From Acaryochloris marina MBIC11017 (GTDB lineage Bacteria > Cyanobacteriota > Cyanobacteriia > Thermosynechococcales > Thermosynechococcaceae): a stretch of 32,000 nt of DNA. Position 1 is the first letter of the stretch. Each line of letters begins with the position of its first letter. Both the position numbers and the translations under genes were made by a program. The notes below the pieces were generated by a model, which was not told where the DNA came from, did no database searches, and saw nothing but the letters and a program-made list of their open reading frames with translations. This document shows positions 9,908 to 32,000 of this stretch, one piece after another. Location: positions 4,980,001 through 5,012,000 of the forward strand of contig NC_009925.1 in NCBI RefSeq assembly GCF_000018105.1, written 5' to 3'.

Positions 9908-9928
9908 TCTGATTTGTCGTGAATGGGG

Positions 9929-10672
9929 TTAGGCGGCGTTGGATTCAAAGAAAGGCACATGCCCGCCAAACGCGCGTTGAATATTGTTCTTGGTCAATAC
10001 ATCTTCGCGAGAACCGCTAGCAATCAGTTCACGGTTAAGCAAAATTAAATCATCAAAGTTGGTAATGGCTTGCCCTAAATCATGGTGAACCACCAGCACG
10101 GTATGTCCCGTATGGGCTAATTCATGCAAAATATTGAACACAATGGCTTCGGTTTTTTTATCAATGCCAGCTAGGGGTTCGTCTAGACAAAAAATTTCGG
10201 CTTCTTCCGTTAACGCTTTCGCTAGAAAGACGCGCTGTTGCTGTCCTCCAGAGAGTTGACCAATGGGGCGATGCTTTAAGTTTGCAATCCCCACTCGCTC
10301 TAATGCATCTGCAGCCAAACGTCGAGACACGGTGGAGTATCGCTTTAACCAGCCAGTTTTGCGAATCCGTCCCATAAGGACGACATCCCAAACCGTGGCG
10401 GGGTAGGTCCAATCAATTTGCGATCGCTGCGGGATATAGGCGACTCGATCGAGCTGCTGCTTGAGGGGCTTATCCCCCCACATCACCTGTCCACTCGTGG
10501 GCAAAACCAAACCCAGCATTGCTTTCAGCAGCGTACTTTTCCCAGCTCCATTCGGGCCAATAATACCGGTTAACCGTCCTGAGTTGACGGAACAAGTCAC
10601 GTTGGTGAGGGCTTTTACCATACGGTATTGCACACCTAAATGGTCCACAGCCAGACTGCTAGCACTGTTCAT
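9929..10672 (-). CDS. Metal ABC transporter ATP-binding protein (ZnuC/MntA type)
   Basis: Walker A is GPNGAGKST, the ABC signature is LSGGQQQR, and Walker B is IFCLDEP. The ORF is open to 10810, but the ATG at 10672 (MNSASSLAVDHLGVQY) gives the normal family length. Confidence 0.9.
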   Translation of the reverse strand: MNSASSLAVDHLGVQYRMVKALTNVTCSVNSGRLTGIIGPNGAGKSTLLKAMLGLVLPTSGQVMWGDKPLKQQLDRVAYIPQRSQIDWTYPATVWDVVLMGRIRKTGWLKRYSTVSRRLAADALERVGIANLKHRPIGQLSGGQQQRVFLAKALTEEAEIFCLDEPLAGIDKKTEAIVFNILHELAHTGHTVLVVHHDLGQAITNFDDLILLNRELIASGSREDVLTKNNIQRAFGGHVPFFESNAA

Positions 10673-10786
10673 GCACAAATTCTCATCGTTTCTAAGGAAG
10701 GACAAAGCGTTTGCACCTATAAATTGCGTTGAATTTTTAGGTGTAAACACCTGAGAAATGAAAGGAATGCAATTAAAGATGAAACG

Positions 10787-10831
10787 ATTATGAAAATACT
10801 GTAGCATCAAAAAGTGAAAGCATTATGAAAA
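10787..10831. promoter_or_regulatory. Direct repeat of ATTATGAAAA in the divergent promoter region of the metal-uptake genes; candidate metalloregulator operator
   Basis: ATTATGAAAA occurs at 10787-10796 and again at 10822-10831. Both copies lie between the divergently transcribed ATPase/permease genes and the binding-protein gene. AT-rich ATNAT cores resemble Fur-family boxes, but there is no clear palindrome. Confidence 0.25.
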
Positions 10832-10846
10832 ATTGATGGAAACGCC

Positions 10847-11824
10847 ATGACAACTTCCTTCCTAAAGCGCCAATTTGATTCCTGGGCATGGGCGATCGGC
10901 GGATTATTTCTGGGGTTGAGTTTGGTCGGATGTACCGGAGGTCAAGACACTGAACCATCAGGGAAGCCCAAGGTTGTCGCGACCAACACGATTTTGCAAG
11001 ATTGGACGGCAGAAGTCGCCGGGGATGAAGTTGAACTGGTGGGTATCCTGCAGCCCGGGGCAGACCCCCACGTTTATGAACCCGTCCCGGCAGATAATTT
11101 AAGAATTGAACAAGCGGATCTGATTTTCTACAACGGCTACAACTTAGAACCAGGCTTGATTAAGCTAATTGAATCGACCCAGAAATCTAAAGTGTTTGCT
11201 GTGGGGGAAGTGGTGACGCCCCTGGATTTCGATTATGAGGGTAAGCGAGAGCCCGATCCTCATGTTTGGGGCGATGCCAAAAATGCCATCAAAATGGTGA
11301 ACGCTATTCGCGACCAGCTAATTGAGCTATCCCCGGAGGATAAAGAAGAATTTACTCAAAATGCAGCTGAATTTACGAAAGAACTGGCAGCGGTGGATCA
11401 ATGGATTGGCCAACAGATGCAAACTATTCCCAGCCAACAACGACAGTTAGTCACGACCCATGATGCCTTTCAATACTATGCCAAAGCCTATGGCCTCACG
11501 GTTGCAGGCACCCTGATTGGCATGAGTACGGAAGAGCAACCCAGCGCTCAAACCGTCAAACGGCTTTCGGATGATATTGAAAAAGCCAAGGTACCGGCTA
11601 TTTTTGCGGAAACTACCATTAACCCAGCTTTGATCAAAACCGTAGCGGCGGAAGCCAAGGTAAAGCTAGCGGAGCAAGAGCTGTACTCAGATTCCATTGG
11701 TGCCTCGGGAACTGAAGCCGATACTTATATCAAGATGCTTCAGGTGAATACTCGCACGATTGTGGAAGCGTTAGGGGGCAACTACACCGAATTTCAGGCA
11801 GCATTATCTGAGGAAAAGAAATAA
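10847..11824 (+). CDS. Metal ABC transporter substrate-binding lipoprotein (cluster A-I; ZnuA/MntC/TroA family)
   Basis: 325-aa ORF with the lipobox LSLVGC. Metal-ligand blocks are GADPHVYEP, DPHVWGD and TTHDAFQYY. The third ligand position is His as in ZnuA/TroA-type proteins, but the His-rich loop is absent, so metal specificity is not resolved. Confidence 0.9.
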   Translation: MTTSFLKRQFDSWAWAIGGLFLGLSLVGCTGGQDTEPSGKPKVVATNTILQDWTAEVAGDEVELVGILQPGADPHVYEPVPADNLRIEQADLIFYNGYNLEPGLIKLIESTQKSKVFAVGEVVTPLDFDYEGKREPDPHVWGDAKNAIKMVNAIRDQLIELSPEDKEEFTQNAAEFTKELAAVDQWIGQQMQTIPSQQRQLVTTHDAFQYYAKAYGLTVAGTLIGMSTEEQPSAQTVKRLSDDIEKAKVPAIFAETTINPALIKTVAAEAKVKLAEQELYSDSIGASGTEADTYIKMLQVNTRTIVEALGGNYTEFQAALSEEKK

Positions 11825-13401: not shown

Positions 13402-15720
13402 TTAGGTTTTGGCAACTTCCACCGGGTTGATCTTCCTTTGTCGATCAAACAGAATCCGGGGAGTGAAGAAGCTTTTGACGAGTAAGTAGAGGGATTGCAA
13501 CTCTCCAGGGGCCTGAGGGCTTTTCCACTGACCGGGACGACAGAACAGCATTTCGACTAACCTGCGGTATTGGGGCGTTGTTACCTCGGCAAATTTAAGC
13601 TGGACAATCGGGTAATCATCTTCCCGCTGCTGAATCTGAGTAATAACCGCCTGGAGACATAAGTTCTCTTCTTGAATCTCAACCTGGACGGATTCTCCAA
13701 AATAATGTCTGGGTAATCCAGCTTGGGTCAGGGCAATTTCTGCACCGCCTTCCGAAATCATGGTGGTGATTCCCCATAACTTCAGGTTTCCTAAGGTGAG
13801 TCGAACCGTGCGTCGTAAATCGAACCACTCGTAGAGATCGGGCTTAGGAGCATCCAGCAAAATTAGTAGGGCCACTCCTAACACAATCAGGTTGTAAGAA
13901 CTCCAGAGCCAGCCCAGTTCGATCCCTTTAATTTGTAGGGCCACTTCTGGTTCAACAGTGGTTGACCAGGCTCCCTTCACCATGCACATGCCGAGATTAC
14001 GCCAGAGGCTAACCGCTGTGAAGATAAACAGCACTACTAATGGAGAGGCCAATTTCCAGTTGAAGGTGTAGCGATCGCTAGAGACCCCTTTGGGAGTTAC
14101 CTTAAAGCCTTTGGAAAAGGGATTAAATAGGGTCTGTAAAACCGTGAGCGCTACCGGAAAGCATTGGGATACCGCATAGATATCGGAGATGAGGGCAGAG
14201 CGACTGCGCTGATTCAGCCAAGAGAAGGTGAAGAGCTGCACCAAATAGTAGGGCATAAAGAAATACAGCATTTCTTGAGTGGTTGCCCGCCAAGGAATTA
14301 CGCCAAAGAAGGCATAGGCCAGGGGCATGAGCAAAAACCCCACCCGAGACACACTGGTAAACCACTGCAGTAAGCCATCTAAATGGGCAAGCCGCTGAAT
14401 TAACTTAAGCCCTCTAATTCTGAGGGGATTGGCTTCAATAAAGAAGGCCTGCAAGGTGCCCCTAGCCCAGCGAAGTCGTTGAGTGATATGGGCCGACATA
14501 TTCTCTGCGGATAATCCCGCGCTCAGACTTTCCCCCAAGAAGATCACCCGCTTGCCTTTCGCGGAGAGACGAACCCCCGTAAAGTAATCTTCACTCAGGG
14601 TTCCTGTGGCAAAGCCGCCTGCCTCGGCCAAAGCGCTACGGCGAGCCACAAAAGAGCTGCCATAACACAGGGCCGTTTCCACCCCATCCCGTAGGGGCTG
14701 GTAATAGCGAGAGAAGATCTCAACTTCTTGGGGCAGAATATTTTCCAGGCCAATATTGCGGGCCACGGGATCGGGATTAAAAAAGCTTTGGTGGGTTTGC
14801 AGTAGAGCAATGCTGTCGTTCTGAAAGAAACCTACAGTGCGTCGGAGAAAGTTTTTGGTCGGTACAAAGTCTGCATCAAAGACCGTGAGCAATTCCCCGG
14901 ACGTGAAATTCAGGGCATGATTCAAATTGCCAGCTTTGGCATGGAGATTATCGGGACGGATAATATACTCACACCCTAGCTCGGTCGCTAAAGCTTTGAT
15001 TTCAGGCCGCCGTGTATCATCCAGCAGGTAAACGGTCTTGCGGGGATAATCCATCGCCTGACAGCCAATAATGGTGCGCTTCAAAATAAAGCTGGGCTCG
15101 TCATAGGTCGGAATCATCACATCGACCGTGGGCAGATAGTCTCCATCGAGGACGGCCATTTCATTGATGTCCGCTTCCCCCAGCCGATTGGTTGAACGAG
15201 ACACCAGAATCAGTTGAATAACATTGGTGACGATGGTAATGATCTCTAAGGTCAGCAGACCAATACTAAAAATACTGTTGAAGGTATCTGAGAGATTGAG
15301 GGTCCAGAACAACCGCCACACCACATACTGCACAATCAGCAGTAGCAGAGATGTTCCCACGATCAAACGAGACCAAGGTCGCGGCGAAGACGATACCTGC
15401 ATAACAATCAGGACAGCCACCAGCAAGAGAACCGATGGCACAGCCAAATAATTTCCTGCGGCGACGGGGACCGCTAGCCAGAGGGGGGGATTGGCAAACA
15501 GCAGTTCCACCTGCTTAAAAATGGCCGTGACTCGATCTTCTCGGATAAACCATAGGCCCACCCCCAGTCCAGTGGCTAGAAAAATTCCCACCATGGAGAA
15601 TAGGGTGAGCCGAATTCGTCGAATAAATAAATTGGGTGATAGTGCAGATTTCTGCAGACTTTTGGGCAGATCGGGGAGGTGTGGCTTCGTAGCGGTCATA
15701 TCAGCTTCCTTAACGGCCAT
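13402..15720 (-). CDS. bcsA: Cellulose synthase catalytic subunit-like glycosyltransferase (GT2) with a C-terminal PilZ domain
   Basis: 772-aa ORF. It carries HAKAGNLNHAL, VFDADFVP, TLSEDYFTG and QRLRWARG (QxxRW) within a multi-TM scaffold. The C-terminal LRRTVRL ... MISEGGAEI resembles the RxxxR ... (D/N)xSxxG PilZ c-di-GMP motifs. The symbol is given in the family sense only. Confidence 0.85.
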   Translation of the reverse strand: MAVKEADMTATKPHLPDLPKSLQKSALSPNLFIRRIRLTLFSMVGIFLATGLGVGLWFIREDRVTAIFKQVELLFANPPLWLAVPVAAGNYLAVPSVLLLVAVLIVMQVSSSPRPWSRLIVGTSLLLLIVQYVVWRLFWTLNLSDTFNSIFSIGLLTLEIITIVTNVIQLILVSRSTNRLGEADINEMAVLDGDYLPTVDVMIPTYDEPSFILKRTIIGCQAMDYPRKTVYLLDDTRRPEIKALATELGCEYIIRPDNLHAKAGNLNHALNFTSGELLTVFDADFVPTKNFLRRTVGFFQNDSIALLQTHQSFFNPDPVARNIGLENILPQEVEIFSRYYQPLRDGVETALCYGSSFVARRSALAEAGGFATGTLSEDYFTGVRLSAKGKRVIFLGESLSAGLSAENMSAHITQRLRWARGTLQAFFIEANPLRIRGLKLIQRLAHLDGLLQWFTSVSRVGFLLMPLAYAFFGVIPWRATTQEMLYFFMPYYLVQLFTFSWLNQRSRSALISDIYAVSQCFPVALTVLQTLFNPFSKGFKVTPKGVSSDRYTFNWKLASPLVVLFIFTAVSLWRNLGMCMVKGAWSTTVEPEVALQIKGIELGWLWSSYNLIVLGVALLILLDAPKPDLYEWFDLRRTVRLTLGNLKLWGITTMISEGGAEIALTQAGLPRHYFGESVQVEIQEENLCLQAVITQIQQREDDYPIVQLKFAEVTTPQYRRLVEMLFCRPGQWKSPQAPGELQSLYLLVKSFFTPRILFDRQRKINPVEVAKT

Positions 15721-16499: not shown

Positions 16500-16709
16500 T
16501 TAGCTGACTAGAGCCATATCACGAATCAAAGTTAGACGGCTCTGAATATAAGCTTTAACCGTTTCTAATTCATCATCCGTTAGCTCTTGTCGTTCTGCCA
16601 ATCGCTGGCTGAGCAAATCAACCAGAGCATGATCACTGGCTCGTAGAAGCTGATGGTGGGGAATCGTATCAACCAACTTCCAGACTTGATTTAGAAGAAC
16701 TGGGGGCAT
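16500..16709 (-). CDS. Small hypothetical protein (69 aa), paralog of 17196..17429
   Basis: It aligns end to end with the 77-aa protein at 17196..17429. Shared positions include M.P.LL..W.L....P...LL...D..V..L, then Y..S.L.LIR.MA. Conservation between two copies supports coding on this strand. Confidence 0.55.
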   Translation of the reverse strand: MPPVLLNQVWKLVDTIPHHQLLRASDHALVDLLSQRLAERQELTDDELETVKAYIQSRLTLIRDMALVS

Positions 16710-17195: not shown

Positions 17196-17429
17196 TCATA
17201 CAACAAGAGCGCAATATTGGTTGGATTCAGCCATCTCTCGAATCAGCAATAGATGGGAGTCGAGATATTGTTCAAGGCTGGCGCGGTCTTCTTCTTTTAA
17301 ACAGGACCGATGCTCGAACTGCTCTAGCAACCATGACACTATCCGAGTATCATCCCATCCAAGCAGGGAATAGGTCGGCAGTTCTTCAATCAATTGCCAA
17401 AGGTCATGGAGCAGGGAAGGAGACAACAC
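17196..17429 (-). CDS. Small hypothetical protein (77 aa), paralog of 16500..16709
   Basis: Same evidence as for 16500..16709. The overlapping plus-strand ORF 17174..17434 has no such paralog support. Confidence 0.55.
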   Translation of the reverse strand: MLSPSLLHDLWQLIEELPTYSLLGWDDTRIVSWLLEQFEHRSCLKEEDRASLEQYLDSHLLLIREMAESNQYCALVV

Positions 17430-19449: not shown

Positions 19450-21402
19450 CTAATGAAAATCGGCGTCCCACACCCCGATATAGATCCGATCTTTCTCATT
19501 GCGCTGAATAATCCCTTTTAGCTCACCGACCTGAAACTCGTATTCACGGGCCTGTCTTTGGTAAATCAAAGTTAGTTGCTCCATCACTTCTACTGGAGGA
19601 CGGTCTTTGAGCATGCCTTGCAAGGCCAAGCGGAGAGTGTCGAGTCCTGCTGATTGGGCAAAAGCGGCTTCCGTTTGTCGCAATCGCTGGGTATCTGCAT
19701 CCAACAAGAAACCAAAGTCTGCTTGATGAGGGTGGAGGTTTTTGTACAACAGTCCATAACTATTCGGCCAATAACCTGGACTTTTCAAAGTGGGAGGACC
19801 TAAGGCAGCCTGGATATCTGTATCGGTTACCCCGACACTAAAAACCGGTACCCTGCTATTTTCGGCCAACAACACAACACCACCAGACGCATTAGGTGGT
19901 GTTGATTCTATTGGAGTCGGGGTTGATTTAGGTGAGGCGGATGGACGCTCCTCGATCTGAGTTGAGGGTACAGGAGATTCAGGGGAGATGGAGGGTTGAT
20001 TGGCCGGAATCTGAACGTCTTGTTCAGGCGATGAAGCTAATTCTGTTTGGAGTTGGCGATGCCTAGAGACTGCCCAGATAGCACTACCGATGCCCAATCC
20101 GCTGAGGAGAAGGATGCCGATGAGTTTCCAAGATCGACGGATTGGTCCCACCGAGTGTTTAACCCCTGAAAGATGCTCAGAATGCAGAGGAACCTCTTCC
20201 GGGACTGTTGCTGCTGGAGTAGAATCCTCTTTGTCTAGGGGAAGGGGATTCAAAATGTGGGAGATATGTTGCTCCAGCCAAGTCTGGTCAAATACCAGTC
20301 GATAGATTTGGTTAGCCACTTTAACCTGCTGACCGTCTTGAATGAGAAGCCCCAAACGCAGCAATTCAGCTTCTTCTTCTCCCTGGATGGATGGGGCTTG
20401 CAACTGATGCCAAACAACTTGATAGTAGGTCAACAAATCAATGGGATCGCAGTTGGGATTTTGGAGAACTTGTTCTTCGATGCTGCTGAGATGTTTCGTG
20501 GCAAATCCAGATCGCCAATTATGAATAATTTGGCTCTGGACAAGCTGTTCTACAACAACGGATTCTTCTCCAGCTTCAACGAAGGAACTTGTGCGGACGA
20601 GGTGGGCGACTTTTTGGTTGAGTACAGAGTGATTGTTGGTCCAGGTAAGAATGGCTTCTAACAGTCGATAGGGATAAGCTCCAGCTTTACTTAGATTGAG
20701 AAATTGAAGTCTAATTTTGTCGTAGGGATGGAGCCTATTGCGTTCTCTCTGAATCCATTCAGCATTAAAAACGGACCGAAACAGGGGATGGGCAATGATA
20801 AGGCGGTTATGGCGAAGGGTGACCAGACCCAGGTTAAGTAGTGCCGTTTGTTCTAAGTCTCCAGTGAAGGGAATATCGTAATGGGTAAGAATTTGCTCGT
20901 AAATCTGGAGGAGGGAGTAGGGGTTGGCGAGTTCATTTTCTAGTAGGTATTCCCGCTGATGCTGCCAATATTCTGGGGTATCGAAGTTGATGGCCTGATC
21001 GGTTTCAGATGGCTGGGATTGAGGGGTGCCCTGGAGATGGGTCAGGAAAAAGTTAATTGTTTGGAGCTTAATCCAACCATTGGCTACGGCTAGGACACCA
21101 AACTTGAGTTGGGTTAGGTTTTGTTGCTCTAGGAGGTAGTCAATTTGGGTATCGGTGAGGAGGTGGGCTTGGCGTAAATATTGCTCGAGGGGTAGCGGAT
21201 CAGGATCGTGAAAGAGGGTGGGCCATTGCTCAGCGAAAAAATCAGCAGTGGGTTCTTTTAACCAGCCATGTTCGCAAAGAAGATCACCAAGGCGATGCTG
21301 ATTGATGGTTTGTTCTTGAAGGGCAAGACTGACTTGAGCAACAGAGATTAATCCGGCTTGTTGGAGGACTGCGCCAAGGGGCTTGGTGGATGCTGAAGGC
21401 AT
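19450..21402 (-). CDS. Single-pass membrane protein (650 aa): two N-terminal MshEN-like motif modules, a cytoplasmic repeat region, a TM helix, a Pro/Ser-rich linker and an unknown extracytoplasmic C-terminal domain
   Basis: Residues 8-60 and 71-123 each fit a 24-aa/5-aa/24-aa arrangement, for example PLGAVLQQAGLISVAQVSLALQEQ-TINQH-RLGDLLCEHGWLKEPTADFFAEQW. There are two copies of an LL.LGL......N.IYR.VF...W motif. The TM helix is WKLIGILLLSGLGIGSAIWAV, followed by a PS-rich stretch. Confidence 0.8.
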   Translation of the reverse strand: MPSASTKPLGAVLQQAGLISVAQVSLALQEQTINQHRLGDLLCEHGWLKEPTADFFAEQWPTLFHDPDPLPLEQYLRQAHLLTDTQIDYLLEQQNLTQLKFGVLAVANGWIKLQTINFFLTHLQGTPQSQPSETDQAINFDTPEYWQHQREYLLENELANPYSLLQIYEQILTHYDIPFTGDLEQTALLNLGLVTLRHNRLIIAHPLFRSVFNAEWIQRERNRLHPYDKIRLQFLNLSKAGAYPYRLLEAILTWTNNHSVLNQKVAHLVRTSSFVEAGEESVVVEQLVQSQIIHNWRSGFATKHLSSIEEQVLQNPNCDPIDLLTYYQVVWHQLQAPSIQGEEEAELLRLGLLIQDGQQVKVANQIYRLVFDQTWLEQHISHILNPLPLDKEDSTPAATVPEEVPLHSEHLSGVKHSVGPIRRSWKLIGILLLSGLGIGSAIWAVSRHRQLQTELASSPEQDVQIPANQPSISPESPVPSTQIEERPSASPKSTPTPIESTPPNASGGVVLLAENSRVPVFSVGVTDTDIQAALGPPTLKSPGYWPNSYGLLYKNLHPHQADFGFLLDADTQRLRQTEAAFAQSAGLDTLRLALQGMLKDRPPVEVMEQLTLIYQRQAREYEFQVGELKGIIQRNEKDRIYIGVWDADFH

Positions 21403-21800: not shown

Positions 21801-22100
21801 TCTAATCTGATTTTCTGTAAGACGGCAACTAGGGAGCTGATCGTTATCCCTAGAGAAAAAGCTAATCTAAGTTAGATCATTATTCTTTTGCCAATACTGC
21901 GTAATTCTTTCTATTGACTCTGAAGAAAGAGTAGCACTTCAAATAGGGAATTAAAGCTGAGACAAGATGGTGTTGGCTGTTTCAATGGTCTCTAGAATCA
22001 AGAAATAACTTGAAACAATCAACATCTGCCCTCAAGTTACTTATCAACCCCCTGAAAGAAATGCTGATTGATTGTATAAATACTGAATTAAGGATGAATT

Positions 22101-22364
22101 ATGGATGACCGACCAGTAACTGAATTAACTGATGGCGAGAAGAAAGAGCTTACTGCCCTTCTTTCTAAGTTCTTCCAGGAAAAGTCGATTGACACGAAAT
22201 CGTTGATTGTTGATGTATCAACAAAAGTAGATCGTGATGAAGAACTATCCTCATCAACTAAAACAAAGCTCTTTTGCCGATGGGGGTGTTGGTCTTGCCA
22301 GGGGCCAGGCCCGTTCCCAGGAGACCCTTGTTTTCCATGGGGTAAATGTTGGGATTGTCGTTAA
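22101..22364 (+). CDS. Leader-plus-core small protein (87 aa) with an acidic, Cys-free N-terminal 55 aa and a Cys/Trp/Pro/Gly-rich C-terminal 32 aa; candidate secreted or modified peptide precursor
   Basis: AGGA lies 6 nt upstream of the ATG. The core is KLFCRWGCWSCQGPGPFPGDPCFPWGKCWDCR, with 6 Cys and 4 Trp. There is no hydrophobic signal peptide. A terminator hairpin follows the gene. Confidence 0.6.
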   Translation: MDDRPVTELTDGEKKELTALLSKFFQEKSIDTKSLIVDVSTKVDRDEELSSSTKTKLFCRWGCWSCQGPGPFPGDPCFPWGKCWDCR

Positions 22365-22440
22365 AAACGACTCTAAATCCAAAGAACAACTGAATTGTTG
22401 ACGATATATACTTAGGATTCCGGTAGAGTCAAATATCTTC

Positions 22441-22482
22441 AAGGCGTAGTGTACAGTGATGTTGACTACGCCTTGCTTTTGG
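22441..22482 (+). terminator. Rho-independent-type hairpin between the peptide gene and the first TPS-domain gene
   Basis: AAGGCGTAGT (22441-22450) pairs perfectly with ACTACGCCTT (22465-22474) across a 14-nt loop. GCTTTTGG follows. The hairpin ends about 17 nt before the ATG at 22499. Confidence 0.55.
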
Positions 22483-22498
22483 GGACTACAATTTTAAA

Positions 22499-25390
22499 AT
22501 GACTCAACATATTCTGAGGTCATATGTACAACTGGGTAGTGCAAGTCTATTCATTGGCTGGACTATCTTCAGCATTGATGTTAGGCACGCTATAGCTCAG
22601 GCTTTACCAGATGCTTCCCTGGGAGCAGAGCGTTCTATAGTTACCCCCAATGTCAATGTTAATAATCGCCCTGCTAGTCTTATTCAAGGGGGAGCTGTAC
22701 GCAATTCGACAACAGTTTTCCACAGCTTTGAGCGTTTTGATATCCCCAAAAATCAAGCCATCTTTTTTGATAATCCCTCAGCTATACGCACAATTATTAG
22801 CCGAGTAACAGGTAACAACCCTTCTCAGATTCTTGGGACATTAGGACTTTGGAACAACATTGCAGGGACAGTTGGTAATGCTGATTTATTCTTCATTAAC
22901 CCTCGTGGCATTGCATTTGGTCCTCAATCCAGCTTAGACCTGAATGGTTCGTTTTTAGCTTCAACAGCAACCTCCATCAATTTCGGGAAAGAGTATCAGT
23001 TTAGTACTATCAATCCAGCTCCTCCTCCGATTTTGACAGTAAATATCCCCACTGGCTTGCAGTTTTCGGGTTCTGAGGCAGCTATTCTAAGTCAGGCTAA
23101 CGTTAACCCTGTTAATCAAACGTTTGGATTGAATGTTCCGCCTGATCGAACCTTAGCGCTGGTTGGAGGGAACATCATAGTACAAGAGGGAAGGCTTTTA
23201 GCTCCTCAGGGGCGTATTGAATTGGGTAGTGTGAAAAATGGCGAAGTTGGCCTTCTGCCCCAATTCAATAGTTGGAAACTAGACTATTCCAACATCGAAA
23301 ACTTTCAAGATATATTGCTTGAACAGCGGTCTGTTGTTAGTGCGACCGGCGTAGGGGGAGGTGAGATTCGTTTGCAGGGCAGGAATGTTCTTATTAATAA
23401 CAATTCAAGGATTTTTGCGACAGTGAATTTTGGCTTTACCTTAGGAGGTACATTAGAAATAGATGCTTCTGAAATTTTTCAGATTAGTAATGGGAGCGGT
23501 GTTTTCACCTCTACTTTGGCAGATGGTGATGCGGGCAGTATTTTAGTCAAAGCCAATAAAGTGTTATTAAAAAATGATGCTGCTATTGTTACAAATTCTG
23601 CTTTTATAGATTTTGATTTTTTTCAAATACGGGCTAATGGAAATAGCGGCAATATTTATATTGATGCACCAGAATCAGTTGAAATTATCAATAATAGTCA
23701 AATCTCAACAACAACGAATACTCCTGGAGACGCTGGTCTAATCAGTATTAAGACAGGCAGGCTGATTGCCAGTGAGTCTTCATTATTCCCAGCAATAAAC
23801 TCTGTGGCAGATATTGGTAGCGAGGGCGAAGCAGGTGATATTAACCTGTTGGCAACTCGATTTATTCAAATTGATAATAGCTCTGTTTCTACTTTTACGG
23901 CTGGTCTAGGAGATGCTGGAGATTTAACAATCAATACACCAAAGCTTCTTTTGGCAAATGGAGGCAGACTTGAGGCTTCAACATTCGGCTCAGGGAAGGG
24001 GGGGGACATTGCTGCTTTCGTATCTGATCAGATTAATATTTCAGGAAATACTCCAAATGCAGACCAACCTAGTGGCATCTTTTCCATAGTTGAGGTGGGA
24101 GCAACTGGTTCAGGTGGTCAACTTCTCTTAAATACAGGCCAATTAAGCATTGAAAAAGGTGGCCAAGTTTCAACCTCTACTGCTGGTCCAGGAGTTGCTG
24201 GCAAGATCGATATTAGGGCATTACAAGGTGTTAGCTTAGCTGATCCTGGAAGTGGGGTGTTTGCCAACACGACTGCGACCGGACAAGGGGGAACAATTTC
24301 ATTTGATACCCCAAATTTCCTGATTGAGAAGGGGGCTGTCGTCAATGCCAGTACTTCTGGAAATGGTCGAGGAGGTAGCATTTTTGTCCAGGCTAATCGT
24401 TTCACGGCTCGTCAAGGCGGCCAGCTTCTATCTACAGCATCTGGTCAGGGGCCAGCAGGGGACATCACTTTACAAGTAAGGGACAACATCACCTTAACTG
24501 GGGCCAATAGTGGATTGTTTGCTAGCACTACACCAGATTCGACTGGGGCTGCGGGCAATATCTTTATCGATCCAATACAGGTGTTGATCGCCAATGGTGC
24601 AGCGGTGTCAGCGACTAGCTTAGGTATGGGTGAAGGGGGAGATATTCAGTTGCGCGCCCGTAATTTAACTCTAGACCAGGGACAGATTACGGCTGAAGCG
24701 GCAGTGGCCCCAGCAGGGGATATTCAGTTGAATATTGACAATTTCTTATTGTTACGAAATGGCAGTTTGATTTCGACGACTGCTGGAGGGGATGCTACGG
24801 GGGGCGATATCAATATTGATGCTCAACTCGTTGCTGCTTTTCCATTTGAGAATAGTGATATTACGGCGAATGCTCTTAGTGGTCCAGGGGGAAATATCAC
24901 TATTACGACTCAAGGTGTTTTCGGCCTAGAGGTCCGAAACACCCTTACGAATGCCAGTGATATTACGGCGTTTTCTCAAACTAACCCCCAACTCAACGGT
25001 ATTGTCGAAATCATCACCCCTGAAGTGGACCCTAGCGAGAATCTGTCTGAACAACCCGAAACGGTTGAAAAGCCGACGGAGATTGCTAGGGGGTGTAAAG
25101 CCCAAACGGCTAGTAGTAGTTTTGTGAGCAAGGGACGTGGTGGTTTGCCCCAAAATCCAGATGCTGCTTTGAGTGGTGAGGCTATCTGGCAGGATCTACG
25201 TGCCCAGGAAATCCAGCCTGCTCAGCAACCCATTAACCAAACATTGCCTCAATCTACTTCACAGACATTTCTTTCCTCGACATCCCAATGGGTAGAGGCT
25301 AAAGCTTGGCAAAGATTATCTAATGGAAAAGTAAAGCTTGTGGGCAATTCAATCAATCAAAATACTTTGCATCCTGTGCCCACTTGCTAG
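22499..25390 (+). CDS. Filamentous-haemagglutinin N-terminal (TPS) domain exoprotein with a right-handed beta-helix repeat body (TpsA-like), copy 1
   Basis: 963-aa ORF. The TPS domain carries SLIQGGAVRNSTTVFHSFERFDIP...IISRVTGNNPSQILG...ADLFFINPRGIAFG...LDLNGSFLAST. It is followed by about 20 Gly/Asn/Ser/Thr-rich coils of about 22 aa (GDI.L...N..L..G..I). The C-terminal module is shared with copy 2. Confidence 0.9.
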   Translation: MTQHILRSYVQLGSASLFIGWTIFSIDVRHAIAQALPDASLGAERSIVTPNVNVNNRPASLIQGGAVRNSTTVFHSFERFDIPKNQAIFFDNPSAIRTIISRVTGNNPSQILGTLGLWNNIAGTVGNADLFFINPRGIAFGPQSSLDLNGSFLASTATSINFGKEYQFSTINPAPPPILTVNIPTGLQFSGSEAAILSQANVNPVNQTFGLNVPPDRTLALVGGNIIVQEGRLLAPQGRIELGSVKNGEVGLLPQFNSWKLDYSNIENFQDILLEQRSVVSATGVGGGEIRLQGRNVLINNNSRIFATVNFGFTLGGTLEIDASEIFQISNGSGVFTSTLADGDAGSILVKANKVLLKNDAAIVTNSAFIDFDFFQIRANGNSGNIYIDAPESVEIINNSQISTTTNTPGDAGLISIKTGRLIASESSLFPAINSVADIGSEGEAGDINLLATRFIQIDNSSVSTFTAGLGDAGDLTINTPKLLLANGGRLEASTFGSGKGGDIAAFVSDQINISGNTPNADQPSGIFSIVEVGATGSGGQLLLNTGQLSIEKGGQVSTSTAGPGVAGKIDIRALQGVSLADPGSGVFANTTATGQGGTISFDTPNFLIEKGAVVNASTSGNGRGGSIFVQANRFTARQGGQLLSTASGQGPAGDITLQVRDNITLTGANSGLFASTTPDSTGAAGNIFIDPIQVLIANGAAVSATSLGMGEGGDIQLRARNLTLDQGQITAEAAVAPAGDIQLNIDNFLLLRNGSLISTTAGGDATGGDINIDAQLVAAFPFENSDITANALSGPGGNITITTQGVFGLEVRNTLTNASDITAFSQTNPQLNGIVEIITPEVDPSENLSEQPETVEKPTEIARGCKAQTASSSFVSKGRGGLPQNPDAALSGEAIWQDLRAQEIQPAQQPINQTLPQSTSQTFLSSTSQWVEAKAWQRLSNGKVKLVGNSINQNTLHPVPTC

Positions 25391-26155: not shown

Positions 26156-27391
26156 ATGAATAGCTCAAAAAGTTGTTCAAGTTTTAGTTCCTCTTCTAGA
26201 CTAATAAAAGTTTTGAGAGTGCTTTCTGGAGTTAGTGTTTCTATTGAAGAAATAGATTCAATAAATAGGGGTATTATTGATATAGTTAGTGGCTTCGTTT
26301 GTTCTCAAAGCTTTGACAGACTTACTGGATTAAAAACATTATTAATTCGGTCTGATAAGGATGAGATATTTCTGCTCTCGAATAATGGTGAATCTATCCT
26401 CAATGACAACATTATTTTTACTCTTGGTAATTTAGGATTCTTCAACAAGCCAAAAAAGATTTATGTCAAGAATATTAATGATTTTTATGATATTTTTAGA
26501 GATGCTGCAAAGCATAATCGTTTTTTAGACTGCATCTACAATCGTCTAACAAGAGAGTTGAATTATGTAAGATTATCATCAACAGATATCGCGATAAGCT
26601 CAGAATCAAAAATATCAAACTCGGATTCTTTACATCAAAATACTTTATCTCACATACCACTACCTTTAAAAATCTATTTTATTGGTGACTTTACTAAGAA
26701 CCAAAAGGTTTGTTTTCAGCTTGCCGCTGAGCGTTGGGGGGAAATTATTCATAATAATTTACCAATAGTCAGATTGCATGGAGAGATTATCGAAGGTGTT
26801 TTGATTTACGCAGTAGCAGTTGCCCTTGATGGTGAGAGTAAAATACTTGCTCAGTCAAGTCCGCTTCATCTCCGGAAGGAAACTTTACTACCTGCAACTG
26901 GAATAATCGAGTTTGATAAAGATGATCTTTCTAGAATAGAGGATAGTGGAAATTTAGTTAGTCTTATATTTCATGAAATAGGGCATATTCTCGGCTTTGG
27001 AAGCCTCTGGGAGAAAAAGGGATTGGTGCAAGGCTTAGGGACAAGTAACCCCATCTATATTGGTAAAAATGCGATGCGGGAATATGCGAAATTAGTAGGG
27101 TATGATTTCCCTATTCCTATTCCTATTGAAAATTCAGGAGAAAAAGGATCACTTTATGGACACTGGCGAGAATCCATTCTTGGAAGTGAAATAATGACCA
27201 GCTATTTAGGTAAAGAGTACAACCCAATTAGTAATATTACCCTAGCAGCTATGGAAGATATTGGTTACTCAGTCAACTATAGTGCCGGAGATTCAGTTCT
27301 ATTAGCTAGTACTGACAATTACAATAAAGATGGCAATAGGAAGGATAAAAGATGTTGTAGGTTCTTCAAAAGAGATTTTATTTTTGTATAA
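26156..27391 (+). CDS. Leishmanolysin-like (peptidase M8 family) zinc metalloprotease with an uncharacterised N-terminal domain of about 140 aa
   Basis: 411-aa ORF. HEIGHILGFG (nt 26972-26986 encode HEIGH) is followed by GSLYGHWRESILGSEIMTSYL...SNITLAAMEDIGYSVNY. This parallels the GP63 pattern HExxHxxGF ... GSH ... DELM ... LT.A...D.G.Y. No signal peptide is evident. Confidence 0.8.
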   Translation: MNSSKSCSSFSSSSRLIKVLRVLSGVSVSIEEIDSINRGIIDIVSGFVCSQSFDRLTGLKTLLIRSDKDEIFLLSNNGESILNDNIIFTLGNLGFFNKPKKIYVKNINDFYDIFRDAAKHNRFLDCIYNRLTRELNYVRLSSTDIAISSESKISNSDSLHQNTLSHIPLPLKIYFIGDFTKNQKVCFQLAAERWGEIIHNNLPIVRLHGEIIEGVLIYAVAVALDGESKILAQSSPLHLRKETLLPATGIIEFDKDDLSRIEDSGNLVSLIFHEIGHILGFGSLWEKKGLVQGLGTSNPIYIGKNAMREYAKLVGYDFPIPIPIENSGEKGSLYGHWRESILGSEIMTSYLGKEYNPISNITLAAMEDIGYSVNYSAGDSVLLASTDNYNKDGNRKDKRCCRFFKRDFIFV

Positions 27392-27423: not shown

Positions 27424-28065
27424 ATGAGTGGTCCTCAAGATACTTCACTTACATCACATGGTTCCGGTGATGGTGGTACTTCAAAAGATTTACTTGATCG
27501 AGTAGTTTCTACTTCTATCTTACTGAAGTTTCTCGAGATTTTTGAAGGTGCAGAACTTAAGTTGTCGCAAATTATAGATATTTCCAATGGGGTCATTGAT
27601 TTTGTTACTGGGCATGTTGTGACTCAAAACTATGCTACCAAGACAGATAAGGCAAGCGGCTCTAAAACTGTTGTTTCCCGACAAGTTCAGATCCAGACAG
27701 CACATGAAGGAAACTTTACTTTAACAACCAATGAATCTGTAAAGTTAAGTGATTCTGCCATCAAGAGCTTAAGAGATACAAATAACACCTACTTATTCAA
27801 TAAAACAGATGATATTTATGTTAACGATAAAAGTCTTGAGTTTGCTCAAGATTTGCTACAAGAGGCATCAAGATATGGCCAACAAGTCACTTGCGTTTAT
27901 GATCAATCCAATGGAGATATTCTTTTAGTTCGAATAATTTCAAATCCAACATCTATTTCAAATGACAATAGATCATTCCCTTATATTCTCTCAGCCAGTG
28001 GCCCCGGAGTTCCTTCCCCAACACCCCAACCAACCCCTCATCCAACACCTCATCCGCGCCGATAA
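27424..28065 (+). CDS. Hypothetical protein (213 aa): homolog of the N-terminal domain of the adjacent M8 protease, plus a Pro-rich tail
   Basis: A strong AAGGAG lies 5 nt upstream of the ATG. LLKFLEIFEGAELKLSQIIDISNGVIDFVTGHVVTQNY aligns with LIKVLRVLSGVSVSIEEIDSINRGIIDIVSGFVCSQSF, and DDIYVNDK...CVYDQSNGDILLVRIIS aligns with KKIYVKNI...CIYNRLTRELNYVRLSS. The tail is GPGVPSPTPQPTPHPTPHPRR. Confidence 0.7.
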   Translation: MSGPQDTSLTSHGSGDGGTSKDLLDRVVSTSILLKFLEIFEGAELKLSQIIDISNGVIDFVTGHVVTQNYATKTDKASGSKTVVSRQVQIQTAHEGNFTLTTNESVKLSDSAIKSLRDTNNTYLFNKTDDIYVNDKSLEFAQDLLQEASRYGQQVTCVYDQSNGDILLVRIISNPTSISNDNRSFPYILSASGPGVPSPTPQPTPHPTPHPRR

Positions 28066-28318: not shown

Positions 28319-31300
28319 TTGACAGATATGAGACTTATATTGAGAAAGGTTAGTGAGAATTTGGAAGCTCTGTTTTCTCTTCGAAATGTAGTTATTGCTT
28401 CAATAGCTACCAGCACTTTTTCATTTGGCCTTTTACATGACATTGGTCTAGGGGAAGCTCAATCTATTTCTATAGATGGTTCTACTCCTACAAATTTAAC
28501 TAATTGTATTGATAATTGTACAATTAGTGGTGGTTCTTTGAGAGGTAACAACCTTTTTCACAGTTTTTCTGACTTCGGCGTTAACTCAGGCTCAGTAGCA
28601 ACCTTTATTGATCCTGGTGTAGTTAATATATTTAGTAGAATTACTGGAGCAAATAAATCTAACATTGATGGCTTAATTAGAGTTTCCGGTGGGAATGGAA
28701 ACCTATATATATTAAACCCAAATGGATTTGTTTTTGGGAAAAATGCGAGCCTAGATCTTAGTGGTTCGTTTATTGCTTCTTCTGCCAATTCTGTCCAGTT
28801 TGGCAATCAAGGCTTTCTAAATATTGCTACAAATCAGATATCAAATTTAACTATAAATCCATCAGCTTTAATTTATGACCAAGCTGGGAAGGCCATAAAT
28901 GTAAATGGAGCACAGCTGACTGTAAATGACAATCAGAATTTACTATTGTTGGGTGGAGAGGTCAATATTAGTAATGGGGCAAGTTTGGGAGCTTTTGGTG
29001 GCCGGATAGAGATAGGAGGGTTAGATAAGCCAGGAGCTATTCGATTGAATCCCAATAGAGGATTTAGTTTGCAATATGTCAATGGTACAAGTCTTTCAAA
29101 TATTTCAATTTCTGATGCACTTCTTGATGTTGCCGCTGGCAACTCAATAGGTGGAGGATCTTTGAGGATTAGTGCAAACAACATCAATATAGAAAATAGC
29201 AATTTTTTTGCTGGCCTGCTTTTTTTGGGAGAATCTGAAACACGATCTGGAGATATTGAGTTTTCTGCAACAAATGACATAAAAATTATTAATAGTTCCA
29301 TTGAGAATCGTTTATTTGAAAACAATCAAGGATTCTCCGGAGATATTATTATAAATGCTAATAATCTGCTTCTAGACTCTAGCAGCGTAAAAGCTGATCT
29401 TGATTCTGGTGCCCAGGGCAGTAGTGGTGAAATACGAATAAAAACCAATTCTCTTAATTTATCTAATCAATCATTAGTCTCGACCAATATCTTTGGAATA
29501 GGAAATTCAGAAGGTATTAGTATATTTTCTAATGGTGGCATTTTCATAGAATCAAGTTCTATCCTCAGCAACCTTGAAAACAATTCGCAGGGAGTTGGTG
29601 GCAAAATATCTATTCAATCTAAGGAGATATCTTTATCAAATCAGTCATTAATATCTACAAATCTTTTTGGAGAGGGTGCTGTTGGAAATATTGGTATTGT
29701 TGTTGATAGAGCCTCTCTAAACTCAAGTAGCATAGTAAGTGATGTTGCTCAGAATGGGAAAGGTAACGGTGGCGAAATTTTTATTACAGTTCATGATTTA
29801 TCTCTAGTTAACAATTCCTTTATTGGTTCCAGTACTTTTGGCGAGGGAAATACAGGAAAGATTTCTATCCTAGCTGAAGATAAAGTTAATCTTGAAACCA
29901 GTTTCATTCTTTCAAATATTTCTGCAGGTGGGAAAGGTAATAGTCGTACGATATCAGTCGATACTTCGAAGTTAATACTTTCTAACGGAGCACAAATAGG
30001 CTCTAATGTCAGCGCTTCATCTAACTTATTTCCAGGTGGGAATGGAAAAGGTGGGAATATAGAAATATTCGCATCAGAAATTGTTCATATATTTGGCGTT
30101 TCTAAGCTAGTAGGCCCATTTGAAGGATTCTCTAGTGGACTTTTCACAACTACGGATGAAGGAGCGATTGGTCCCGCTGGTAAAATCACTGTTACGACCG
30201 ACATCTTTCGCATAACTGATGGTGCAAGTGTTAGTGCCCAAACATTCAACGCAAGCACTGGTGGTGATATAACCATAAACGCCAGGATTTTTGAAGCACT
30301 CAGGGGCGGTCAACTTGTTACCACCACAAGCAGTATTGGTGATGCAGGGAATATTAGGCTGAATGTTTCTGAGTCAATTTTACTTTCTGGCGATGATCCC
30401 ACATTTTTTGTTCGTAAAGCAAAATTCCCTGATATAGTCCAAAATGAAGGATCGGCTAGCGGACTATTTGCTACCAGCCGTCCCAATTCAACGGGAAAAG
30501 CTGGGAGTATCATAATTGATCCTCAATCATTCTTTATTAGCAATGGGGCACAAATTGCTGTAAATAGCCAAGGCAATAGCCCTGCAGGTAATGTAAACCT
30601 GCAAGCAGGAAACTTAACACTTGACAAGGGAAAAATACTGGCTACCTCAACTAGTGGACAAGGTGGAGATATAAACCTTGATATTGATAATTTCCTCTTT
30701 TTAACCAATGGCAGTCAAATTTCTGCAACTGCTGGCAATCAAAATACTAGTGGTGATGGTGGCAACGTCACCATCAATACGGAACTTCTAGTGGCTCTCA
30801 ATAATAGTGATATCACTGCAAACGCCTTCACAGGAAAGGGAGGTAATATTCAAATTACTACCCGTGGTTTGTTTCAATCCCCTGATAGTAATATTACTGC
30901 TAGCTCGGAAAGTGGTGTAAACGGTCAAGTTATTATCAATAACCCTGAAGTTGACCCTAGTGAAAGTTTGTCAGAACTACCCGAATCTGTAGAACCTCCT
31001 CAAGATATTGCCAAGGGGTGTCGCCCAGGTCAGACTCTTGGGGACAGTAACTTCGTTCATGTTGGGCGTGGTGGTCTTCCCCCAGGTCCCCACGAAGCCC
31101 AAACTCCATCCACCGTATGGAAAGACCTTCGCGCTAACAATCTCCAACCCTCTTACACAACCACTGTAGATACTTCGCCTACGCCTTCAGCCCCTGAAAT
31201 CTCTAAAGTGGGTCCTGATATCGTAGAAGCAAAAGGCTGGAGCAAAGATTCCCAGGGTCGCATTTACCTAACCGCCAACGTTCCCCAACCTGTTAACAGC

Positions 31301-31324
31301 CCCCAACCCATTGCAACTTGCTAG
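28319..31324 (+). CDS. Filamentous-haemagglutinin N-terminal (TPS) domain exoprotein with a beta-helix repeat body (TpsA-like), copy 2
   Basis: 1001-aa ORF; the start is TTG at 28319 or ATG at 28328. The TPS domain carries GGSLRGNNLFHSFSDFGV...IFSRITGANKSNIDG...NLYILNPNGFVFG...LDLSGSFIASSA. It has about 20 beta-helix coils. The C-terminal module PEVDPSESLSELPE...AKGC...GRGGLPPGP...WKDLRA...VEAKGW...ATC is homologous to copy 1. Confidence 0.9.
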   Translation: MTDMRLILRKVSENLEALFSLRNVVIASIATSTFSFGLLHDIGLGEAQSISIDGSTPTNLTNCIDNCTISGGSLRGNNLFHSFSDFGVNSGSVATFIDPGVVNIFSRITGANKSNIDGLIRVSGGNGNLYILNPNGFVFGKNASLDLSGSFIASSANSVQFGNQGFLNIATNQISNLTINPSALIYDQAGKAINVNGAQLTVNDNQNLLLLGGEVNISNGASLGAFGGRIEIGGLDKPGAIRLNPNRGFSLQYVNGTSLSNISISDALLDVAAGNSIGGGSLRISANNINIENSNFFAGLLFLGESETRSGDIEFSATNDIKIINSSIENRLFENNQGFSGDIIINANNLLLDSSSVKADLDSGAQGSSGEIRIKTNSLNLSNQSLVSTNIFGIGNSEGISIFSNGGIFIESSSILSNLENNSQGVGGKISIQSKEISLSNQSLISTNLFGEGAVGNIGIVVDRASLNSSSIVSDVAQNGKGNGGEIFITVHDLSLVNNSFIGSSTFGEGNTGKISILAEDKVNLETSFILSNISAGGKGNSRTISVDTSKLILSNGAQIGSNVSASSNLFPGGNGKGGNIEIFASEIVHIFGVSKLVGPFEGFSSGLFTTTDEGAIGPAGKITVTTDIFRITDGASVSAQTFNASTGGDITINARIFEALRGGQLVTTTSSIGDAGNIRLNVSESILLSGDDPTFFVRKAKFPDIVQNEGSASGLFATSRPNSTGKAGSIIIDPQSFFISNGAQIAVNSQGNSPAGNVNLQAGNLTLDKGKILATSTSGQGGDINLDIDNFLFLTNGSQISATAGNQNTSGDGGNVTINTELLVALNNSDITANAFTGKGGNIQITTRGLFQSPDSNITASSESGVNGQVIINNPEVDPSESLSELPESVEPPQDIAKGCRPGQTLGDSNFVHVGRGGLPPGPHEAQTPSTVWKDLRANNLQPSYTTTVDTSPTPSAPEISKVGPDIVEAKGWSKDSQGRIYLTANVPQPVNSPQPIATC

Positions 31325-31452
31325 ACACCCCAGATTGACCGAAAATAAATGTCTAAATCGAGAAACTGGGCATTTGTCATTCGTTTGTGAACATGGGCAA
31401 AAGAATCTGGAAAAGCATCACACCATCAACAACCGTGAGGAAGGGAACATTA

Positions 31453-32000
31453 ATGCTTCAAAGAAAGGCTCGAAGACTACTGCCTCTTACTCGTAAAAGA
31501 TTACGCTGGGTGGGAGTGGCCCTTTGCAGTACCTGCCTAGTCCTTGGTCTCAGCCTTGGGCAACGTCCCGCCCACTCAACCTCAACTCTCCCCACCGCGA
31601 ACCAACTAACCATCAGCACTCCCACAACCCCTCACCCACGTCTGGCTAACAACCCAACCCAACTAGTGGAACAAGGGAAAGCCTTTTACCAAGGGGGACA
31701 GTACGCCGCAGCCGCAGAAGCCTGGTCACAAGCTGCCCAAGCTTATAAAGGTCAGCCCCTAAATCAAGCCATCGTCCTCAATCAACTTAGCCTTGCTCAA
31801 CAAGAACTGGGGCAATGGTTAAAGGCCCAAGATAGCCTAAGTAAAAGCTTAGATATTGTTGGCGACCCTCCAGCCCCAGAATATTTATCTATTTATGCCC
31901 AAGCCTTAAATGCTCAAGGCAGTTTGAACCTATCCCAGGGTGATCCCAAAAAGGCTATGAATACTTGGGGGAAAACAGCCAAAATCTATGCTCAACTGGG
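31453..32000 (+). CDS. TPR-repeat protein with an N-terminal signal or anchor. Partial: it runs off the window end. The N-terminus is of the type seen on cyanobacterial CHAT-domain proteins.
   Basis: The ATG at 31453 is preceded by GAGGAAGGG. The translation is MLQRKARRLLPLTRKRLRWVGVALCSTCLVLGLSLG..., then TPR-like VEQGKAFYQGGQYAAAAEAWSQAAQAYKGQPLNQAIVLNQLSLAQQELGQWLKAQDSL. The frame is open to 32000. The CHAT domain itself is not in the window, so that part is inferred from typical gene neighbourhoods. Confidence 0.7.
   Translation, partial: MLQRKARRLLPLTRKRLRWVGVALCSTCLVLGLSLGQRPAHSTSTLPTANQLTISTPTTPHPRLANNPTQLVEQGKAFYQGGQYAAAAEAWSQAAQAYKGQPLNQAIVLNQLSLAQQELGQWLKAQDSLSKSLDIVGDPPAPEYLSIYAQALNAQGSLNLSQGDPKKAMNTWGKTAKIYAQL

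Follow-up and report, generated by a model that had tools for sequence, protein, structure and literature searches.

The described systems closest to the locus considered here join an N-terminal region that targets or leads the protein to a short C-terminal module rich in Cys. In the STa-type pre-pro-peptides of E. coli and in other Sec-dependent Cys-rich peptides, a targeting region or pro-region precedes a six-Cys module. In the cystine-stabilised beta-hairpins (tachyplesin, protegrin, theta-defensin and the plant hairpinins), nested Cys pairs hold an antiparallel hairpin together. The Nif11/NHLP prochlorosin-type and double-glycine bacteriocin precursors of cyanobacteria have a helical leader that is kept while the C-terminal core varies. 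A different kind of Cys tail, one that binds metal, is found at the extreme C-terminus of secretion factors, as in the SEC-C motif of SecA. Finally, small accessory genes such as CdiI, BcpO and HMW1C occur in fixed synteny with the TpsA gene in two-partner secretion. Small proteins in general are systematically under-annotated.

The window analyzed here, by which is meant the whole 32,000-nucleotide stretch of Acaryochloris marina MBIC11017 DNA, contains a small gene upstream of a gene encoding a large TPS-domain exoprotein, TpsA1. The product of the small gene consists of a leader and a C-terminal core that is rich in Cys, Trp and Pro. The features of the locus and its neighbours are collected in Table 1. 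In a literature search, neither the gene nor TPS-linked peptides of Acaryochloris turned up.

Table 1. Features of the peptide locus and of neighbouring genes in the window
Feature	Position	Strand	Remarks
GGDEF-EAL protein	2828-4585	-	
ZnuABC-type metal uptake cluster	9059-11824		ABC-3 permease, ABC ATPase, divergent ZnuA
Cellulose-synthase-like GT2	13402-15720	-	faint PilZ match
Small gene	16500-16709	-	69 aa
Small gene	17196-17429	-	77 aa
MshEN-type protein, divergent	19450-21402	-	650 aa; tandem N-terminal MshEN-type c-di-GMP-binding motifs (NF053729, E 1.3e-17); 1 predicted TM
Conserved upstream block CCCTGAAAGAAATGCTGATT	22050-22069	+	5'UTR or promoter-proximal; largely conserved, five syntenic loci
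Shine-Dalgarno AAGGA	22090-22094	+	6 nt 5' of ATG; alignment columns invariant in five loci
CDS, 87-aa small protein	22101-22364	+	ATG start; BDM78809.1, AM10699_16780, 'hypothetical protein'
Leader / pro-region, residues 1-55	22101-22265	+	predicted amphipathic helix 11-27, then disordered Ser/Thr-rich linker
Cys/Trp/Pro-rich C-terminal core, residues 56-87	22266-22361	+	C59, C63, C66, C77, C83, C86; ends CWDCR-stop
TATYAT hexamer (TATCTT here)	22434-22439	+	abuts stem 5' side; conserved in six loci, alignment columns 13-18
Conserved intercistronic RNA stem-loop	22440-22475	+	-20.7 kcal/mol; IGR fold z = -3.84
UUUU run then GGGG (C-UUUU-GGGG)	22477-22484	+	weak terminator tail and/or TpsA ribosome-binding region, as read from sequence
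TpsA1	22499-25390	+	963-aa TPS-domain exoprotein with N-terminal signal; PF05860 E 7.5e-51; TIGR01901
M8/leishmanolysin-like peptidase	26156-27391	+	
213-aa protein	27424-28065	+	unannotated
TpsA2	28319-31324		second TpsA of the window

The 87-aa protein and its homologues

The open reading frame is exactly as the initial annotation described it. Its frame is open for just one codon before the ATG, so an N-terminal extension is impossible and the missing signal peptide is not an annotation artefact. The leader had been called acidic, free of Cys and not hydrophobic; it has a net charge of -4, no Cys and a maximum 15-residue Kyte-Doolittle mean (KD15) of 0.45, and thus includes no hydrophobic segment. 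Its supposed unlikeness to Nif11 and NHLP leaders is borne out by hmmscan, which found no NCBIfam family at E<=0.1, and the 87-aa sequence lacks a GG motif, as had been noted. In the leader-bearing proteins of all six clusters described below, inspection of hydropathy and motifs revealed no Sec, Tat, lipobox or GG signals.

The last 32 residues, KLFCRWGCWSCQGPGPFPGDPCFPWGKCWDCR, contain all six Cys and all four Trp of the protein, spaced as C-x3-C-W-x-C, a 10-residue Gly/Pro linker and C-x5-C-W-x-C. The two similar half-sites that had been recognized in this core are sharper than first described, reading WG-CWxC and WGxCWxC, and form an internal WG(x)CWxC repeat. The core has a net charge of 0 to +2 and is not cationic. 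Its Cys composition is not beyond chance, with six other non-coding-frame stretches in the window reaching at least five Cys per 32 aa. Composition alone is thus unconvincing, and it is the conservation of homologues that carries the case for a gene.

On this evidence, the small reading frame is a genuine gene under purifying selection. Nei-Gojobori dN/dS lies between 0.05 and 0.33 over 15 ortholog pairs, with dS ranging from 0.75 to saturated, and between 0.07 and 0.39 for the leader alone, so that purifying selection is present in leader and core alike. Across six syntenic loci the gene is 255-285 nt long and always a multiple of three, with indels in frame. The AAGGA preceding the start codon, originally rated a good Shine-Dalgarno sequence, is conserved without change. 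A spurious open reading frame is ruled out by purifying selection along the whole length, together with the occurrence of the core apart from TPS genes, and the region proves to be coding rather than non-coding in its evolution. The block conserved further upstream has no match to the sigma-70 consensus.

Homologues are few. A single-sequence word-indexed search returned only the 87-aa protein itself, while three homologues were found by exhaustive phmmer search of 1.84 billion representatives, and eight 90%-identity clusters in total by profile search of 5.8 billion proteins, with P0009-P0011 as additional members. The named genomes that encode the family are those of Acaryochloris only (MBIC10699, CCMEE 5410 and A. 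marina WP_212665329), where every member is annotated as a 'hypothetical protein'. In the sequence collections searched, the family is thus nearly confined to Acaryochloris cyanobacteria, occurring in genomes like those of Acaryochloris and in a few contigs from the environment. Scanning the GTDB species genomes and JGI metagenomes with a degenerate core pattern at the DNA level, validated on 13 loci, gave 14 matches, all of them TGG/TGC low-complexity artefacts, and tblastn against 72,556 plasmids gave nothing. The family has no match in Pfam (noise only at E<=10) or NCBIfam. PADLOC matched none of the cluster proteins and so gives no support for a known defence system.

The initial annotation had tied the gene to homologues with conserved Cys positions, and these exist: C2-C5 are invariant across the eight clusters, as are, by position, R60, G62, C63, C66, P71, P76, C77, C83, W84 and R87. 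Two subfamilies are present. Subfamily A comprises six clusters of 84-94 aa from Acaryochloris and relatives that have the whole protein in common. Its core follows the pattern C1-x3-C2-[WYR]-x-C3, a 7-10-residue Pro-rich loop and C4-x5-C5-W-x-C6-R-stop, and S50, T53 and T55, N-terminal to the Cys residues, are invariant. Subfamily B consists of P0004 (166 aa) and P0008 (169 aa), which have only the core in common (56-61% identical over a 36-residue core alignment). Their N-termini are unrelated to the subfamily A leader, and the Ser/Thr motif is not kept. Both proteins begin with a positively charged n-region, an h-region with a KD15 of 1.8-2.2 and an AFA/ALA site, which by hydropathy and the AxA motif constitute a Sec-type signal, and the core of these proteins would thus be extracytoplasmic.

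The neighbourhoods of P0004 and P0008 differ from each other and neither has a TPS gene. Just upstream of P0004 and an IS630-like transposase remnant (L007, 6202-9799), there is a VIT-vWA protein whose C-terminus is a PEP-CTERM-like tail (TPEPSEILGYLIALFGIFLVMAKKH...RR), and after it come an exosortase of the EpsH family and a 222-aa protein. P0004 was considered as an exosortase substrate and rejected, as the PEP-CTERM tail is that of the neighbouring VIT-vWA protein, P0004 has no C-terminal TM and the P0008 neighbourhood is different.

The Cys-rich core and its predicted fold

The reading toward which we lean, tentatively and at somewhat less than even chances, is that of a pro-peptide with a disulfide-pinned hairpin, acting outside the cytoplasm with TpsA1. 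The initial annotation offered a disulfide-knotted or a metal-binding core. Between these, a nested-disulfide hairpin is favoured over a zinc site in the modelled core, given that C1 and C6 are lost together, that AF2 pairs the two strands and that subfamily B has a Sec signal; the disulfide option gains from the paired loss and from the two homologues with such signals, and the metal option comes out as the less supported of the two.

The loss of C1 and C6 occurs in one clade (P0002, P0006 and P0011), where they are replaced together by Tyr/Phe and Tyr, respectively. In the core, six Cys are conserved, or four where the pair has been lost. Joint loss is what nested disulfides, C1-C6, C2-C5 and C3-C4, would lead one to expect, with C1-C6 as the outermost. 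It is awkward for a zinc site built on the two CWxC knuckles, of which C6 would be a ligand. The paired loss represents a single evolutionary event.

In AF2 models built from an 8-sequence alignment, residues 11-27 form a helix, residues 30-56 have pLDDT values below 50, suggestive of disorder, and the core reaches a pLDDT of ~80-88, with strands 61-64 and 83-86 antiparallel. When the core was modelled alone, the best model (pLDDT 79.6) had the same topology, and the other four of the five models had mean pLDDT values of 53-61. AlphaFold modelling, which had been suggested as a way to judge the geometry of the core, thus does return an antiparallel hairpin, but with confidence in only one of the five core-only models. 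A PDB sequence search and Foldseek searches with the full-length and core-only models found nothing similar.

It may be instead, although we consider this unlikely, that the protein stays in the cytoplasm and binds metal. The CWxC knuckles (C63/C66 and C83/C86) could chelate Zn, or Cu(I) with the participation of Trp, in a zinc-ribbon-like tail, while the N-terminal helix would bind TpsA1 as it is being made, or else a regulator. Such a protein would act as a chaperone for secretion, specific to this lineage, or would regulate the TPS operon. The missing export signal in six clusters agrees with this reading, as does a leader that co-varies with the TpsA1 lineage and not with any exporter or protease, and the AF2 model brings the two CxxC motifs, separated by 16 residues, close to each other. 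However, the four ligand Cys of the two knuckles are not conserved throughout the family: the clade in which C86 is Tyr lost this presumed ligand together with C59 and retained C77. Moreover, P0004 and P0008 appear to send the same core through Sec into a compartment where zinc sites of the Cys4 type are uncommon. Nor did the core match any zinc-finger or SEC-C model of Pfam or NCBIfam, even at E<=10, or any sequence or fold in the PDB.

Linkage to TpsA1 and the intercistronic stem-loop

Orthologues of TpsA1 form eight clusters at >=60% identity, and all other TpsA proteins are at <=42%. In all six leader-bearing clusters the peptide gene is located 124-159 nt upstream of an orthologous TPS gene, and it is upstream of the TpsA1 orthologue in every such locus retrieved. 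The suggestion that the core always precedes a TPS gene therefore stands for every leader-bearing homologue, but not for the subfamily B core, which has no TPS gene nearby. When the window and all loci were scanned with the HMM in six frames, no paralogous copy was detected, and no such open reading frame upstream of TpsA2. The same is true of a Tolypothrix TpsA of the CHAT-linked type, which is followed by CHAT genes and TpsB; any TpsA partnership would thus be lineage-specific. The order in which TpsA2 is followed by CHAT/TPR genes (window 28319-32000) recurs in Tolypothrix sp. FACHB-123 (L036, 6001-15003). There, these genes are succeeded, on the opposite strand, by a second CHAT gene and a TpsB of the ShlB/POTRA type; the window stops short of the point at which a TpsB could be seen.

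A distant relative is encoded in three JGI metagenomes (L033, 5515-5838; also L034 and L035), directly upstream of an 889-aa TpsA that is 40% identical to TpsA1. The open reading frame was called over-extended, at 164 aa, and its true start is likely an internal Met. From this Met it aligns to the subfamily A leader from residue 1 (hhalign E 2.2e-5, probability 76%). The L033 leader has an HMM score of 15.6 bits, as against a maximum of 5.4 in 2000 shuffles (0/2000), and an E-value of 0.04 in a six-frame set of 6770 segments. It is detected by the profile of subfamily A alone and missed by a profile that includes subfamily B. Judged from these alignments, a relationship to the leader in the window is probable. 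The L033 tail, ACVWRSSPPPPCVVCT, is a different Cys/Pro/Trp sequence, with three Cys and a PPPP run. With a homologous leader on a different tail in L033, and the core on an unrelated N-terminus in subfamily B, leader and core appear to behave as separable modules, the leader keeping to the TpsA lineage and the core occurring as a portable unit. The leader was also considered as a relative of the N-terminal domain that the 213-aa protein and the M8-like peptidase have in common, an idea that was dropped at an hhalign probability of 0.3%.

The neighbours within +/-10 kb are TPS, M8 peptidase, CHAT, MshEN protein, LOR and GT2 genes. Over ~140 residues, the 213-aa protein shares homology with the N-terminal region that precedes the catalytic part of its M8/leishmanolysin-like peptidase neighbour, and this is likewise the case in L010, L013 and L006. 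It ends in a Pro-rich tail (PSPTPQPTPHPTPHPRR) and may be a stand-alone pro-domain or an inhibitor-like paralog. The 650-aa MshEN protein is syntenic in L006, L010 and L013 and absent in L014, and its C-terminal domain has no assigned function. With the GGDEF-EAL protein and the GT2 encoded in the same window as the TPS genes and the MshEN protein, the predicted gene content of the neighbourhood has a theme of c-di-GMP, surface and matrix. The two small genes of 69 and 77 aa look like mutual paralogs with the pattern L..LW.L...LP...LL ... L.LIR.MA; neither is assigned to a family, and CCMEE 5410 has them too. The ZnuABC-type cluster is located ~10 kb from the peptide gene.

The gene content of these loci bears directly on the bacteriocin or RiPP identity put forward in the initial annotation, which is a conjecture, as no maturase, peptidase-ABC exporter or immunity gene is encoded within +/-10 kb. 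Under such a scheme, which we regard as improbable, the leader would be a recognition sequence, S50, T53 and T55 and the Cys-rich core would be cross-linked (through thioether or Cys-Trp bonds) by enzymes encoded elsewhere, and the M8-like peptidase would remove the leader. The architecture of a leader plus a C-terminal core would suit it, as would the conserved leader with a divergent core in L033, the conserved core with a different N-terminus in subfamily B, the invariant Ser and Thr residues upstream of Cys in subfamily A and an M8-like metallopeptidase gene that is syntenic in four loci. However, none of the loci has a LanB/C/M/KC, radical-SAM, YcaO, P450 or PCAT gene within +/-10 kb, and at L033 the leader is present while M8 peptidase and CHAT genes are both missing. 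Subfamily B dispenses with the Ser/Thr motif and has a Sec signal, which is atypical for RiPPs, and there is no Nif11/NHLP match.

The hairpin reported directly after the gene in the initial annotation is present as a conserved stem-loop at the same place in all six loci, with predicted energies of -18 to -30 kcal/mol. In L006, the true TpsA ATG lies 3' of it. Of the 16 pairs predicted from the six-locus alignment, seven show compensatory changes. Hairpin cells are paired in 89.6% of cases, as against 28-44% when the partner is slid, and the covariation score was reached by none of 500 shuffles. A simple terminator scan did not call the stem-loop because the T run is only four long, and Rfam holds no family for it (the sole match, mir-728, is on the opposite strand with 22.7 bits vs a gathering score of 70, E 0.35). 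The tail after the stem is U-rich in four of the six loci and poor in L006 and L004. GGGG is present in four of the six, is reduced to GGG in L013 and is absent in L006. From its sequence, the stem-loop is plausibly a terminator in the four loci with a U run and would be a weak one in L006 and L004. The TATYAT hexamer is a possible -10 box for tpsA1 or a possible single-stranded AU-rich RNase site, and as it abuts the stem, it offers a credible alternative reading, a promoter of tpsA1 whose transcript would begin with the stem-loop. The corresponding intergenic position in L033 has a stable but unrelated GC-rich hairpin (z = -2.15).

That the reading frame is a cis-regulatory uORF, in which translation of the Trp/Cys-rich end would control terminator formation (ribosome-mediated attenuation of tpsA1) without any role for the peptide as such, is extremely improbable: a small ORF rich in rare residues, with a conserved hairpin and U run just before the main gene, would fit, but attenuation leaders are far shorter than 87 codons, the stop codon is 75 nt 5' of the stem with intervening sequence that is not conserved, purifying selection acts on the amino-acid sequence along the whole length, and the core is present in proteins without a TPS gene downstream.

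A proposed model and its relation to known systems

The pro-peptide reading can be set out as follows. The precursor would comprise the N-terminal amphipathic helix, the disordered Ser/Thr-rich linker and a C-terminal mini-domain of 29-32 residues. The mini-domain would be a beta-hairpin closed by the Pro-rich loop, with nested disulfides that are most likely C59-C86, C63-C83 and C66-C77 and of which the outermost would be dispensable. The leader would be the part tied to the TpsA1 lineage, and the core a portable module working outside the cytoplasm. Translation would start from a strong ribosome-binding site belonging to the small gene itself, the transcript would be either shared with tpsA1 or end just before it, and the stem-loop would set the relative expression of both genes by partial termination or RNA stabilisation. 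The mature module would probably exert its function at the cell surface or in the matrix, jointly with the TPS exoprotein. What we infer in this model is how the disulfides are connected, that the signal-less form is exported and processed, how strongly the two genes are expressed relative to each other, and any partnership with TpsA1.

Several observations sit uneasily with the pro-peptide model. The leader-bearing proteins have no export signal and no exporter gene within +/-10 kb, which gives them no evident path to an oxidising compartment. The three Cys of the L033 tail cannot all pair in intramolecular disulfides. The two CxxC motifs could equally bind metal in the cytoplasm, the paired loss of Cys is one event, and the confident core-only model is one of five.

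A bolder version of the model, which seems to us quite unlikely, would make the leader a docking element for one TpsA lineage that delivers interchangeable Cys-rich mini-domains to the cell surface by a non-Sec route. The peptide would then be a third component that has so far gone unrecognised, cargo or cofactor, of cyanobacterial type Vb (two-partner) secretion, with the stem-loop setting the stoichiometry.

The gene defines an unnamed family under clear selection, with a compact predicted Cys/Trp fold that is without structural precedent in the PDB, and it is in strict synteny with the gene for a secreted adhesin-like protein. If exported, the protein would add a new type to the secreted peptides of cyanobacteria and might be a two-partner secretion accessory factor; if it stays in the cytoplasm, it would represent a new factor specific to TpsA. 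In both cases it provides an entry point for tests on the cyanobacterial TPS/CHAT gene clusters, which are very abundant and poorly understood. The reach of such findings is limited by the narrow distribution of the family.

Among known systems, the STa-type pre-pro-peptides provide the nearest match in layout. The full sequence of signal, pro-region and six-Cys tail is found in subfamily B (P0004 and P0008), whereas the subfamily of the window itself has no signal peptide. There is also no similarity to STa in sequence or fold, the spacing of the Cys residues is different, the core is rich in Trp and Pro, and there is no sign of toxicity. The likeness to tachyplesin, protegrin, theta-defensin and hairpinin hairpins is an analogy from general background only; it consists of the predicted antiparallel hairpin and nested Cys pairs, with one clade lacking both Cys of the outer pair. 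Unlike those hairpins, the core yields no Foldseek match, has a 7-10-residue Pro-rich loop and imperfectly opposed Cys registers, and lacks cationic character.

With the Nif11/NHLP prochlorosin-type and double-glycine bacteriocin precursors, the family shares a cyanobacterial host, a helical leader with a C-terminal core and the retention of the leader while the core varies. It differs in having no HMM match, no GG/GA site and no LanM or peptidase-ABC transporter nearby. The Ser/Thr stretch before the Cys residues is reminiscent of lanthipeptide precursors, but no Lan enzyme is encoded in any locus retrieved.

The stem-loop can be compared with the leaky intrinsic terminators that follow structural peptide genes in nisA-type operons. 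Unlike these, it has only four U in the window and a poor U-tract in L006 and L004, was not called by the scan, and with TATYAT abutting the stem allows a 5'-UTR reading. The likeness is in the placement of a stable stem-loop, here with compensatory changes, between a small, well-translated gene and large downstream genes. The two-partner secretion accessory genes CdiI, BcpO and HMW1C provide the last comparison, which is drawn from general background. Although the gene is upstream of tpsA and not downstream, TpsA1 has no recognisable toxin tail and there is no Pfam, NCBIfam or PADLOC match, it resembles these accessory genes in being a small gene held in fixed synteny with a TpsA gene.
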